Shown: positions 2,240 through 24,465 of the stretch, one piece after another
Layout of the letters: every line of letters starts with the position of its first letter
Position numbering within the stretch: the stretch's first letter is position 1
Origin: a virus
Lineage: Duplodnaviria > Caudoviricetes
Strand: one strand, 5' to 3'
Virus record (IMG/VR): IMGVR_UViG_3300020379_001212
Location: 1 to 25,132 of that record
Length of the DNA: 25,132 nucleotides
Notes under the pieces: model-generated
Seen by the model: only the letters and a program-made list of their open reading frames with translations
The model's database searches: none
What the model was told of the DNA's origin: nothing
Translations under genes and position numbers: made by a program

Positions 2240-2505
2240 GTTCAAAACAAACAGGACATTGGTGTATTTTTTACAGAAAAAATGCTGATCCAAGTGGTAT
2301 TTGGTATACCATGAAGACATGGAGAAAAGATGGTGTTCTTGTTTCTGCTAAAACATATAATGATGTGTATAAATTTGATAGGTATAAAGAAGCATGGCAA
2401 TTTGCTAAGAATTTAATTACTGAAGAACCAACACCTAAGTATGATGCACAAGTCAAACGTGTATGTCGTGCCAGAGGAGATGCCTTCTACCTTTCAGGAA
2501 ACTAA
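2236..2505 (+). CDS. Hypothetical protein
   Basis: 89-aa ORF, start overlaps the upstream stop (ATGA). Confidence 0.75.
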   Translation: MSSKQTGHWCIFYRKNADPSGIWYTMKTWRKDGVLVSAKTYNDVYKFDRYKEAWQFAKNLITEEPTPKYDAQVKRVCRARGDAFYLSGN

Positions 2506-2507
2506 AT

Positions 2508-2523
2508 TGTATCAACGGATACA
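2508..2523. promoter_or_regulatory. NtcA binding site
   Basis: TGTA-TCAACGGA-TACA, an exact TGTA-N8-TACA palindrome in intergenic DNA, 1 nt upstream of a -35 box. Confidence 0.75.
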
Positions 2524-2524
2524 G

Positions 2525-2554
2525 TTGACAGTACATACATAGTAATGGTATAAT
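2525..2554 (+). promoter_or_regulatory. Sigma70-type promoter
   Basis: TTGACA (2525-2530), 18-nt spacer, TGG-TATAAT (-10 at 2549-2554); predicted +1 near 2561 coincides with the start of the structured RNA. Confidence 0.85.
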
Positions 2555-2561
2555 TACCATA

Positions 2562-2605
2562 CGTTCATCCCGCTTTCGGGTGGGACGCAAGTAAGTCGCG
2601 GAACG
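2562..2605 (+). ncRNA. Glutamine riboswitch-like aptamer 1 (glnA / Downstream-peptide class)
   Basis: P1 CGUUC/GAACG; P2 UCCCGCU-UUCG-GGUGGGA; junction GACGCAAGUA; lies upstream of a DUF4278-like gene, the usual context for this RNA class. Confidence 0.75.
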
Positions 2606-2608
2606 GAG

Positions 2609-2793
2609 CGTTCATCCCATGGCAGAATTTCTTCTGTATACTACACTCAGTTGTCAACAAACTTCAGCAATCATGTTGAAGATTGAGGCAAGTAAATACC
2701 TTGATAATCTTGTTAAGGTTGAACTAGTTGAGACCCTCAAGGACTCAGCACCTGAATGTGAGTGGTATTGGGACGCAAACGACTGAAGGAACG
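2609..2793 (+). ncRNA. Glutamine riboswitch-like aptamer 2, interrupted by a ~150-nt coding loop
   Basis: Second CGUUCAUCCC at 2609-2618; matching 3' half GGGACGCAAACGACUGAAGGAACG at 2770-2793. Confidence 0.65.
2619..2786 (+). CDS. 55-aa hypothetical protein nested in aptamer 2 (not in supplied ORF track)
   Basis: MAEFLLYTTLSCQQTSAIMLKIEASKYLDNLVKVELVETLKDSAPECEWYWDAND; GGAG at 2605-2608. Confidence 0.7.
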   Translation: MAEFLLYTTLSCQQTSAIMLKIEASKYLDNLVKVELVETLKDSAPECEWYWDAND

Positions 2794-2828
2794 GCGCTAA
2801 TCACGTCAACTACTTCAGGAGTAAACTC

Positions 2829-2996
2829 ATGAACACACTCAATCTCATTCGCAAGCAGATCAACAAAGCTGCTGCACTTCACGACGCACAGATCTCTCAC
2901 ACCTCATATCGTGGTGTAGAGTATGACACCCGTTGTGTTGAGAGTAAGGAAACTCACGGTACATTCTGTTATCGTGGTAAGACTTACACCAAGTGA
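2829..2996 (+). CDS. DUF4278-like small protein, 55 aa (not in supplied ORF track)
   Basis: MNTLNLIRKQINKAAALHDAQISHTSYRGVEYDTRCVESKETHGTFCYRGKTYTK with two YRGxxY motifs; AGGAG RBS at 2817-2821. Confidence 0.8.
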   Translation: MNTLNLIRKQINKAAALHDAQISHTSYRGVEYDTRCVESKETHGTFCYRGKTYTK

Positions 2997-3009
2997 TCAA
3001 CTTACGTTC

Positions 3010-3035
3010 GAGAGGGTTTCGACCCTCTCTTTTTT
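3010..3035 (+). terminator. Rho-independent terminator
   Basis: GAGAGGGT-TTCG-ACCCTCTC followed by T6. Confidence 0.92.
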
Positions 3036-4316: not shown

Positions 4317-4563
4317 ATTAGCAAAGAAAGCAATTAAAGAAGCTAAGAAGAAACCTGAACTGTACACAGAAGAGGAACTTCAATACATGGCGCTACAATT
4401 GATCCGTGCTAAAATAGGATTGAAACTAAAACAACAACGACGCAAGCAGGAGAAAGGATTTAGTAATGAATTCAGTGAAACTCGTAACAGTAACTCCCGA
4501 AGCGGAGAAGACGATGGGGTACGTAGCGAGGGTGAGCAACCCGAGCAACCAGGAGAATCCTAA
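4291..4563 (+). CDS. Basic helical hypothetical protein
   Basis: MTRLKDQIRLAKKAIK...PELYTEEELQYM; 3' end overlaps thyX by 98 nt. Confidence 0.65.
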   Translation: MTRLKDQIRLAKKAIKEAKKKPELYTEEELQYMALQLIRAKIGLKLKQQRRKQEKGFSNEFSETRNSNSRSGEDDGVRSEGEQPEQPGES

Positions 4564-5104
4564 GGTCGCTGGTCTTCTAAAGTATTGCATCAAACACAAC
4601 CATTGGAGTGTCTTTGAGCAAGCACACATGACCCTTGAAATTGAGACTACCAGAGGACTGGCAGCTCAAATCCTAAGGCATCGTTCGTTCACATATCAAG
4701 AGTTTTCGCAGCGGTATGCTGACAGTTCTATGTTGGCAGACAAGATTCCTCTACCTGAACTTCGTAGACAAGACACTAAGAATAGACAGAATTCTATTGA
4801 TGATGTTGATCCATTTGTTCGTCAAGAGTTTCAGATCAAGATGCAGAAACATTTTGATGATGCTATGAAACTTTATCAAGATATGTTAGAATATGGTATC
4901 GCAAAGGAGTGTTCACGTTTTGTGCTCCCCCTTGCTGTACCAACAAAAATCTACATGACAGGCTCAGTTCGGTCATGGATCCATTATATCGAATTGCGTT
5001 CCGCTAATGGTACGCAGAAAGAACACATGGACATCGCACTAGATGCTAAGCGTGTGTTCGCAGAACAGTTCCCTATTTGTGCGGAGGCACTCGGATGGCA
5101 ATGA
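4466..5104 (+). CDS. thyX: FAD-dependent thymidylate synthase
   Basis: HWSVFE and the ThyX signature QILRHRSFTYQEFSQRY. Confidence 0.97.
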   Translation: MNSVKLVTVTPEAEKTMGYVARVSNPSNQENPKVAGLLKYCIKHNHWSVFEQAHMTLEIETTRGLAAQILRHRSFTYQEFSQRYADSSMLADKIPLPELRRQDTKNRQNSIDDVDPFVRQEFQIKMQKHFDDAMKLYQDMLEYGIAKECSRFVLPLAVPTKIYMTGSVRSWIHYIELRSANGTQKEHMDIALDAKRVFAEQFPICAEALGWQ

Positions 5105-23812: not shown

Positions 23813-24303
23813 TGAAAGTTTTTGACGACTTTCTTCCTGAAGAACAGTATAATGTAATTGCTAGTACCATGTTGAGTGCGGACTTTCCATGGTACTACGC
23901 CAATTCTGTTGTATCAAAAAATCTTCTTTGTACAGAACAAGAGAATTATCAATTTGGACATAGTTTTTATTTTAACTATGGATTCAAGAGTGAGTATGCT
24001 CAAATGTTGATACCTATCTTGGAGAGATTAAATCCTAGTGCTATTGTTAGAATTAAGGGAACACTTCTCCCCAGATCAGAAAAAAATATTGAGCATGGTT
24101 ACCACCTCGATAACCAATCGAGTACGTTAGCTGCGATATACTACATTAATACTAATGATGGGTATACAAATTTCAAAGAAGGTGGTAAAATTAACAGTGT
24201 AGCAAACAGATTAGTTTTGTTCAACACTGACGAATATCATACAGGGGCAACTTGTACTGATGAAAAAGTTAGAGTTTTAATTAATTTCAATTACTACTCA
24301 TAG
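23812..24303 (+). CDS. 2OG-Fe(II) oxygenase superfamily protein
   Basis: HxD (GYHLD), YYINTNDGYT, NRLVLF..H.G, R.LINFNY. Confidence 0.85.
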   Translation: MKVFDDFLPEEQYNVIASTMLSADFPWYYANSVVSKNLLCTEQENYQFGHSFYFNYGFKSEYAQMLIPILERLNPSAIVRIKGTLLPRSEKNIEHGYHLDNQSSTLAAIYYINTNDGYTNFKEGGKINSVANRLVLFNTDEYHTGATCTDEKVRVLINFNYYS

Positions 24304-24375
24304 CTTCCTTAGCAATCTGGTGAATGCAGCAAACTCATAATTTGCCTAAGGAGAGTTCGATCCTCTCAGGAAGCA
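24303..24375 (+). tRNA. tRNA with CAT anticodon (elongator Met or Ile2)
   Basis: Acceptor GCTTCCT/AGGAAGC; anticodon arm GCAAA-CTCATAA-TTTGC; T arm GAGAG-TTCGATC-CTCTC; CCA not encoded. Confidence 0.92.
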
Positions 24376-24380
24376 CCTAA

Positions 24381-24465
24381 GCGAGTGTGGCGGAATCGGT
24401 AGACGCACCAGACTTAAAATCTGTTGAGAATTAATCTCGTGGGGGTTCAAGTCCCCCCACTCGCA
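24381..24465 (+). tRNA. tRNA-Leu(TAA)
   Basis: Acceptor GCGAGTG/CACTCGC; anticodon loop CTTAAAA; long variable arm; T arm GGGGG-TTCAAGT-CCCCC. Confidence 0.95.

Follow-up and report, generated by a model that had tools for sequence, protein, structure and literature searches.

A protein-coding gene nested within a hairpin of a predicted double glutamine-type riboswitch in marine cyanomyoviruses

Riboswitches are commonly presented as leaders located 5' of the genes under their control. We ask how such a leader can be organized if a gene lies within its fold. The question is raised by positions 2562 to 2794 of a stretch of 25,132 nucleotides (nt) from IMG/VR record IMGVR_UViG_3300020379_001212 (this whole stretch is called the window in the following), which is a fragment of a T4-like cyanomyovirus. 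There, two units that resemble glutamine riboswitches precede a short DUF4278 gene, and the hairpin loop of the second unit is occupied by an open reading frame (ORF) of 55 codons. Our answer is a composite one. The early mRNA would open with a double and likely interlocked sensor of the glutamine type, one hairpin of which encloses a gene, and the ligand-bound fold would turn the nested gene off and the DUF4278 gene on. This combined reading, which is derived from the comparison of sequences and predicted folds, could in our judgement go either way; its parts differ in strength.

A gene enclosed by the second hairpin

The locus is built from two repeats, which the initial annotation had described correctly, coordinates included. 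That is, CGTTCATCCC is found at 2562-2571 and again at 2609-2618, and GGGACGCAA...GGAACGG occupies 2582-2606 and 2770-2794 (all features of the window given here are on its forward strand). The first unit (2562-2606) consists of CGUUC, an A, a hairpin (2568-2585) that indeed folds with the UUCG loop noticed before (2575-2578), and GACGCAAGUAAGUCGCGGAACGG. Behind it follow the second CGUUCAUCCC (2609-2618), an ATG at 2619, the 55-codon ORF and GGGACGCAAACGACUGAAGGAACGG (2770-2794). As had also been claimed, the ORF (2619-2786 including its TGA stop codon) starts with an ATG that abuts the stem and ends with the residues WDAND, whose codons form the 3' strand of the aptamer. The 3' motif GACGCAA-N9-GGAACGG is seen twice (2584-2606 and 2772-2794) while 0.07 occurrences are expected, and none of 100 shuffled sequences shows it two or more times. 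The 9-mer CGTTCATCC has two exact copies (at 2562 and 2609); if one mismatch is allowed, 5 copies are seen vs. 3.5 expected, i.e., it is not rare by itself.

The arrangement is widespread. Altogether, 421 GenBank phage records match positions 2500-3030, nearly all of them myoviruses of Synechococcus or Prochlorococcus, and at least 80% of this query is covered in 175 of these matches. Within IMG/VR, we estimate that about 1300 stretches carry the exact 3' motif. Two samples were drawn: 120 IMG/VR loci were gathered through the exact 3' motif (sample 1), while 80 loci were gathered via the DUF4278 protein alone, i.e., with the RNA unconstrained (sample 2; the best 80 of 587 confirmed out of 600 candidates). 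The 3' motif was evaluated in 203 cases: an ORF splits the hairpin in 177 of them, 14 were called compact, 10 are truncated and 2 are rearranged; one of the 14 called compact (L173) is in fact a split form. Isolates such as S-CAM4 and S-RIM44 have the split form, too. The comparisons below are based on 149 distinct ORF-bearing (split) versions and on a MAFFT alignment of 147 sequences (A1), and all counts of covariation are to be read as phylogenetically non-independent.

The hairpin remains closed around the ORF. Its 5' strand UCCCA (2615-2619), the last base of which is the A of the nested ATG, pairs with UGGGA (2769-2773), which codes for Trp and the start of the following Asp codon. The pairs of this stem are kept in 149, 149, 149, 148 and 132 of the 149 versions. 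For the pair beside the ATG, we observe C-G in 118, U-A in 21, U-G in 8, A-U in one and a U/C mismatch in one version, whereas shuffling the partners at this pair (500 shuffles) leaves on average 129.4 and at most 135 versions paired. Within A1, 3 of 4 stem pairs show changes on both sides, and 99.8% of the cells are paired; sliding the partners against each other drops pairing to 37-53%. The covariation score of the whole named structure is 0.110 vs. 0.079 in shuffled alignments and is reached by none of 500 shuffles. Unguided RNAalifold prediction on A1 yields 7 base pairs, 4 of which are the stem across the ORF and none of which lies inside the ORF. The check for covariation across homologs that the initial annotation had called for thus comes out in favor of a stem kept by compensatory changes.

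The start and stop codons of the ORF are tied to this stem. The ATG follows 10 nt after the start of CGUU in 143/149 versions, and about 40% of the versions have all of the AUG paired, namely with a CAU 5' of GGGA. The stop codon is a UGA or UAA inside the 3' strand in 143/149 versions and a UAG that abuts the stem, before the junction, in the remaining 6. Homologs therefore keep both aptamer halves and an open frame between them, as had been anticipated. Individual loci deviate: the nested ORF of L023 has its own stop codon 14 nt 5' of the stem, L069 is rearranged and without 5' halves, and in L142 a deletion has joined the last third of the ORF to the 3' half of unit 1.

Judged by its substitution pattern, the nested ORF is a real coding gene under purifying selection. 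Its lengths fall into one class modulo 3 in 144/149 versions. The ratio of nonsynonymous to synonymous polymorphism (pN/pS) is 0.37-0.57 in frame but 0.85-1.85 in the two other frames, such that the proposed dN/dS-type check across homologs returns frame-specific purifying selection. Within length classes, variation is strongest at third, weaker at first and weakest at second codon positions, and two cysteines as well as several other residues are invariant. The ORF belongs to phrog_504, and a profile search finds 1228 homologous protein clusters of 53-56 residues (or longer by upstream read-through), all of them unnamed; GenBank records label the ORF merely as hypothetical protein. AlphaFold models the product as a small helical protein (predicted local distance difference test, pLDDT, 77.8). 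It has no Pfam match, and the best Foldseek match in the PDB is not significant (E 2.1).

The 3' end of the ORF is subject to a second constraint. Among the 57 distinct ORFs of the DUF4278-chosen sample, the last four sense codons (Asp-Ala-Asn/His-Asp) show zero synonymous variants, while none of the 42 upstream codons has an invariant third position. The 3' end of the ORF serves both as protein code and as RNA strand.

Neither the gene nor the hairpin is the only one of its kind. The site in the second hairpin holds at least two families, phrog_504 (50-56 codons) and phrog_13397 (59-65 codons). The first hairpin, which appears in relatives as 72 distinct compact hairpins with 40 distinct stems, is split as well: among the first 124 loci (L001-L124), this applies to at least 22, and another 15 have too little upstream DNA for a decision. 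Here, the ORF has 65-75 codons (24 distinct sequences) and belongs to phrog_6471 (e.g., in L009, L014, L018, L039 and L073, there at L073:809-1006:-, and in others), such that at least three PHROG families are found across the two hairpins. Its ATG follows CGUUCAUCYN, and the 3' stem strand includes its stop codon. Two examples, UCUUAUG/CAUAAGA and UCUCAUG/CAUGAGA, are perfect over 7 base pairs (bp), covary, and have the start codon paired. Only about 10-14 nt separate this ORF from the predicted transcript start, which would make it nearly leaderless. All four combinations of occupied and unoccupied hairpins are seen.

The three nested-ORF families align colinearly with both cysteines matched (hhalign probabilities of 17.3%, 46.9% and 45.2%), which is suggestive of their homology but does not establish it. 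When the junction motif was searched in cellular genome contigs (34 of 64 parts of the collection), 120 loci were obtained, 119 of which are chance matches in unrelated bacteria. The sole true match (L255) is on a contig of 193,981 bases in a metagenome-assembled genome of Synechococcus and shows another nested two-cysteine ORF ending in WDAND together with a typical DUF4278 gene; this suggests that the contig is a cyanomyovirus genome binned with its host.

Glutamine-type features and the arrangement of the two units

Next to the gene, the nature of the RNA has to be clarified. At gathering scores, the Rfam scan of the window reports two tRNAs only and nothing at the sensor. With reporting by E-value, cmscan aligns the first copy with Glutamine-II (RF01704; 27.3 bits, E 7.7e-5) and with Glutamine (RF01739; 24.3 bits at 2560-2609), which is below the respective cut-offs of 33 and 35. 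The split copy is not reported at all: the insert of 165 nt exceeds what cmscan reported, and the 3' half alone reaches 8.0 bits (E 4.1). The expectation that covariance models miss the split unit is thus borne out.

The initial annotation had further expected that the model is matched once the loop is removed, which can be assessed using natural ORF-less relatives in place of an artificial deletion. In L001 (ACG-2014f) and L002 (Bellamy), both halves are found again but connected through GAAA or UUCG loops, and the flanks of the split form match the ORF-less versions letter for letter. With RF01739, L001 reaches 41.1 bits and thereby passes the cut-off of 35, while L002 obtains 34.5 bits, i.e., the natural ORF-less forms exceed the cut-off or come close to it. 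Scores with RF01704 are 32.1 (L001), 27.2, 27.1 and 24.3 bits in relatives (cut-off 33); the second hairpin of this model (GGAACGG in the loop) is poorly matched by the window, and the alignment contains several non-standard pairs.

Complementary strands for P1, the helix closing the three-way junction of RF01739, i.e., CGUUC and GAACG, are present at 2562-2566, 2601-2605, 2609-2613 and 2789-2793, all of them near-invariant. An outer core can be composed from the junction CGCAAGUA (2586-2593), which is one change away from the Rfam Glutamine consensus CGGAAGUA of the cmscan alignments, an exact GAAGGAACG, and AGUCG (2594-2598) paired with CGACU (2780-2784) as P3, where the latter strand extends into the nested stop codon by one base. 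The inner core has the junction CGCAAA (2774-2779), which is invariant except for A/C at one position.

Published work connects such aptamers to this type of neighborhood. DUF4278 genes are the usual downstream partner of glutamine aptamers, and a glutamine aptamer acts as ON switch for the IF17 gene of Synechocystis, according to PMC6212724. T4-like cyanophages are stated to carry glutamine aptamers in PMC9964418, PMC9602691 and PMC9004378. The gene downstream of the two units (2829-2996, 55 amino acids) is, as annotated before, of the DUF4278 (IF17-like) kind, given 23.2 bits for PF14105 (cut-off 25.3) and a match to phrog_545 with E 2.9e-36. Because relatives score near or above the cut-off, a DUF4278 gene lies downstream and occurrence in cyanophages is known, we treat the element as a divergent glutamine-type sensor with predicted ligand binding.

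How the two units are combined is less evident from the motifs, since each P1 strand has more than one possible partner. The first CGUUC (2562-2566) is complementary both to 2601-2605 and to the last GAACG (2789-2793). Moreover, the two middle strands (3' strand of P1 in unit 1, 5' strand of P1 in unit 2) can pair with each other in the hairpin GAACG-GAG-CGUUC (2601-2613), which is part of the minimum-energy folds. The initial annotation had assumed a simple tandem of independent aptamers. Under this assumption, 2562-2566 pairs with 2601-2605 as P1 of the first and 2609-2613 with 2789-2793 as P1 of the second aptamer; the gene is located in the second P2 loop, and GAACG-GAG-CGUUC is an alternative pairing of the ligand-free RNA. 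The P1 and P2 strands are indeed complete in each unit. Unit 1 of the window, like unit 2 of L002 (34.5 bits), is aligned by cmscan as a self-contained aptamer, and in a few loci (L042, L078) unit 2 is present without the 3' half of unit 1. Tandem arrangement is also reported for some glnA RNAs in Weinberg 2010 (PMC2864571).

The alternative is a pair of interlocked cores, where the second, permuted core is located inside the P3 arm of the first. Its helices are an outer P1 (2562-2566 with 2789-2793), a P3 common to both cores (2594-2598 with 2780-2784) and an inner P1 (2601-2605 with 2609-2613), followed by the inner P2 around the gene. Three observations distinguish the two arrangements. First, the middle P1 strands change together: GAACG to CAACG is accompanied by CGUUC to CGUUG in 6/6 distinct variants from two loop contexts, while the outer strands (first CGUUC, last GAACG) are unchanged in all 6, and an unswapped mixture of the middle strands is found in none of about 140 other junctions. 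The swap costs both tandem P1 helices their innermost pair, leaves the hairpin between the units perfect and breaks none of the interlocked helices; it therefore fits the interlocked fold. Second, constrained energies are -71.4 kcal/mol for the interlocked and -68.9 kcal/mol for the tandem fold, i.e., the latter is 2.5 kcal/mol worse, and the free fold of 2560-2796 (-72.0 kcal/mol) contains both outer and inner P1. Third, the top-scoring alignment among the relatives (41.1 bits, L001) joins the 5' part of unit 1 with the 3' part of unit 2 via AGUCG/CGACU as P3. Given this, we consider two interlocked cores probable, as judged from predicted pairing, and the simple tandem unlikely, though we hold its dismissal loosely.

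Expression platform and proposed switching

The interlocked sensor is embedded in what looks like a complete transcription unit. A promoter of the sigma-70 type (2525-2554; TTGACA, 18-nt spacer, TATAAT, i.e., 12/12 hexamer matches, with a TG 5' of the -10 box) ends 7 nt 5' of the first CGUUC. From its spacing, the transcript is predicted to start at about 2561, one base 5' of the sensor. An intrinsic-terminator-like hairpin (3010-3029) with a T run (up to 3037) would end the two-gene transcript behind the DUF4278 gene.

As a separate observation, the -10 hexamer is located inside an inverted repeat (2543-2560; AUGGUA-UAAU-UACCAU). Promoters of other phages show different repeats (GGUCUA-UAA-UAGACC, GGUGUUA-UAA-UAACACC) with covarying arms; a stem of at least 5 pairs is possible in 86 of 96 distinct promoter regions, which comprise 53 distinct arm pairs. 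The 3' arm is mostly upstream of the predicted start, so the repeat would form an RNA hairpin only in read-through transcripts or, otherwise, be a DNA feature.

The DUF4278 gene has a Shine-Dalgarno (SD) sequence AGGAG (2817-2821) located 7 nt 5' of its ATG. It is overlapped by CUUCAG (2813-2818), which is complementary to CUGAAG (2783-2788), i.e., to a strand that includes the nested stop codon UGA (2784-2786) and is called anti-SD strand in the following. Both strands could be recognized in 114 of 167 distinct linkers. Among these 114, we find CUGAAG/CUUCAG in 55, CUGAAG/CUUUAG (with a G-U pair) in 31 and CUAAAG/CUUUAG in 28 cases. The mismatching combination CUAAAG/CUUCAG is not seen (0/114), while about 13 cases are expected if the strands were independent. 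The anti-SD helix is also part of the minimum-energy fold of 2560-2835 (-84.3 kcal/mol, z -2.87). Since parts of P3 and of the GAAG junction belong to the anti-SD strand, the ligand-bound fold and the anti-SD helix should be mutually exclusive, and an ON switch for DUF4278 is therefore predicted, as proposed for gifB.

On the side of the nested gene, an SD-like GGAG (2605-2608) lies in the loop of the inner P1 hairpin, 10 nt 5' of the nested ATG. This loop reads GAG(C/U) in 128/139 ORF-bearing forms, whereas ORF-less forms show GAU(U) in 9/12 and GAG in 1/12 cases.

Two further observations concern the same region. GUUCAU (2563-2568) is complementary to AUGAAC (2829-2834), i.e., to the start codon of DUF4278 and the codon next to it, and both are paired in the minimum-energy fold. 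An additional pairing of the OFF state is conceivable here; 94/114 recognized gene starts begin with ATGAAC, which may simply be due to a conserved Met-Asn. Loci with long linkers (L002:480-560, L127, L163, L199 and others) show an extra covarying hairpin of the form ACGGAUCC-stem-GNRA-stem-GAGAAGGUU and a longer stretch able to pair with GAAGGAACGGG, which looks like a different expression platform.

Combining these elements, we propose the following scheme. Without glutamine, the anti-SD helix would keep DUF4278 off, while the weak stem of 5 bp would permit initiation at the nested gene. Once glutamine is bound, P1, P3 and the junctions would lock and the anti-SD strand would be withdrawn, such that DUF4278 would be turned on as in the gifB leader of Synechocystis; at the same time, the nested start region would be buried and the nested gene turned off. 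A ribosome on the nested ORF would hold the stem open and, when reaching the nested stop codon, unwind inner P2, P3 and outer P1, which would reset the sensor. Since a terminating ribosome must unwind sensor helices, translation and sensing would exclude each other in time. This mutual exclusion follows from geometry, while the sign of the regulation is what we infer.

Several points weigh against this reading. With regard to the sensor, no Rfam model reaches its gathering score there, the split copy goes unreported, and the inner core, in which GUA and GAAG of the type-1 junction consensus are missing, may bind no ligand. With regard to the interlocking, the argument is carried by one swapped pair and an energy difference of 2.5 kcal/mol: among the P1 strands, compensatory change backs the inner pair G2601-C2613 only, outer P1 and P3 lack covariation support because both never vary, and the 6 swap variants may stem from very few events. 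With regard to the hairpin around the gene, U-A at the pair beside the ATG mostly coincides with the ORF families of 59-65 codons, i.e., the respective covariation counts are not independent. With regard to the switching, inner P1 and inner P2 are present in the ligand-free fold, too, so the nested start would be partly occluded in both states, which weakens its predicted glutamine-dependence. Finally, DUF4278 could be turned on by a ribosome that terminates within the anti-SD strand, which would run opposite to the proposed toggle.

The last point can be extended to a positive coupling of the two genes, where the terminating nested ribosome melts the anti-SD helix. Translation of the nested gene would then always bring about synthesis of DUF4278, and the role of the sensor would be limited to setting the frequency of nested starts. 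This fits the location of the stop codon (2784-2786) inside the anti-SD strand (2783-2788), as found in 143/149 versions, as well as the short distance of 31 nt from the nested stop codon to the SD of DUF4278. Furthermore, translation of upstream ORFs (uORFs) in or beside riboswitches of Mycobacterium tuberculosis alters downstream expression, as stated in bioRxiv 10.1101/2023.04.25.538288. However, the ORF-less L001 keeps CUGAAG/CUUCAG, so its platform works without a nested ribosome, and in 6/149 versions the ORF ends at a UAG upstream of the anti-SD strand. We thus regard a purely positive coupling as improbable.

One may also ask whether the second core still exists as a sensor. If the inserted gene had destroyed it, the two halves would be relics that serve as start region, stop context or recombination scaffold, and only unit 1 would sense. 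The flanks do supply an SD-like GGAG and a stop codon, Rfam does not detect the split unit, and different ORF families at one site are what cassette exchange between conserved flanks would produce. A relic is, on the other hand, hard to reconcile with a covarying stem across the ORF, with four last sense codons frozen at synonymous sites and with flanks that equal those of ORF-less versions in every letter, and the first unit alone has no GAAG junction and scores below the cut-off. This makes relic halves very doubtful.

It is hardly credible that the insert enlarges the hairpin as structured non-coding RNA and has its open frame by accident: the region folds somewhat better than shuffled sequences (z -2.87) and the minimum-energy fold shows several hairpins in the window's insert, but substitutions are frame-specific, lengths are multiples of three apart in 144/149 versions, two cysteines are invariant, the ORF is member of a PHROG family, and RNAalifold finds no conserved pair inside. 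A mere annotation artefact was rejected together with it, based on the substitution pattern and the RNAalifold result.

Returning to the reciprocal switch, a more far-reaching version can be formulated tentatively. Here, glutamine binding to one sensor would bury the start sites of the gene or genes within its hairpins and, reciprocally, free the ribosome site of the IF17-like gene behind it, ribosome traffic on the nested genes would erase and reset the sensor, and the near-invariant halves would be flanks for the exchange of small-gene cassettes by co-infecting phages. We consider this extended version possible but doubtful.

The layout matters beyond the single locus. A conserved gene would be situated inside a ligand-sensing fold, with start and stop codons built into sensor helices, in many phages of a very abundant group of ocean viruses. 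The contest between ribosome and RNA folding would become part of the regulatory design, and the arrangement suggests that two or three cistrons may be regulated oppositely by a single sensor. Early phage expression would be linked to the nitrogen status of the host via an IF17-like protein. For annotation based on covariance models, the split core marks a blind spot, as it is invisible to Rfam scans. Since the system is small and natural alleles with and without ORF exist, the proposal is directly testable.

Concerning the neighborhood, a DUF6433 protein is encoded upstream (1551-1982, 178 bits). The downstream ORF 4466-5104 is taken to be a thymidylate synthase of the ThyX type; its counterpart carries the annotation flavin-dependent thymidylate synthase in L001 and thymidylate synthase in L002. 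The two tRNA genes reported by the Rfam scan are adjacent to each other (24303-24375, 52.5 bits; 24381-24465, 60.6 bits).

Relation to known systems

Within the full texts searched, we found no gene inside a glutamine aptamer and no interlocked pair, but only glutamine RNAs of cyanophages and tandem glnA RNAs.

The closest relative by structure is the type-1 glutamine riboswitch (RF01739), represented by the gifB leader of Synechocystis (Klahn et al. 2018, PMC6212724). Shared are P1 made of CGUUC/GAACG, an A followed by a variable P2, a junction of the ACG-AAGUA type, GAAGGAACG, a P3 arm as well as a downstream DUF4278 gene. As proposed there for the gifB leader, an aptamer strand is able to pair with the ribosome site and would be melted off by glutamine. 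Differences are the second, permuted core in the P3 arm, a hairpin that holds a whole protein gene, the junction CGCAAGUA instead of CGGAAGUA and a score of the window below the Rfam cut-off.

The type-2 glutamine riboswitch of marine picocyanobacteria (Downstream-peptide, RF01704) provides the best match of a single unit and shares the host group and the short DUF4278 ORFs, as reported in PMC2864571 and PMC6212724. In contrast to it, the score remains below 33, the second hairpin is matched poorly, and the gene is found inside the RNA, while the 'peptide' of the known family is downstream.

Like tandem riboswitches, e.g., the glnA RNAs in Weinberg 2010 or the glycine riboswitch, the locus combines two sensor units with one expression platform. 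In contrast to them, the swap variants fit units that are nested and have a helix in common, with a gene interrupting one of the two.

Group I introns of phages carry homing-endonuclease genes in their loops, which mobilise the intron, and their RNA is a ribozyme. The two systems share a protein gene in a peripheral loop and the need to reconcile its translation with folding of the RNA. Here, however, the RNA is a predicted metabolite sensor and the proteins are small and without nuclease-like features.

The nearest precedent appears to be the uORF umetE2 within the B12 aptamer of metE in Mycobacterium tuberculosis (Kipkorir et al., bioRxiv 10.1101/2023.04.25.538288). According to this preprint, the ORF lies within the aptamer, and the downstream gene is expressed differently when the ORF is translated, which parallels the arrangement proposed for the cyanomyoviruses. 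umetE2 has 16 codons, overlaps the aptamer sequence itself, is weakly translated and is not known to represent a conserved protein. The ORF nested in the cyanomyovirus sensor is, in contrast, a gene of 50-65 codons; it experiences purifying selection, has more than 1200 homologous clusters and is inserted into a variable hairpin such that its start and stop codons become part of the stem.

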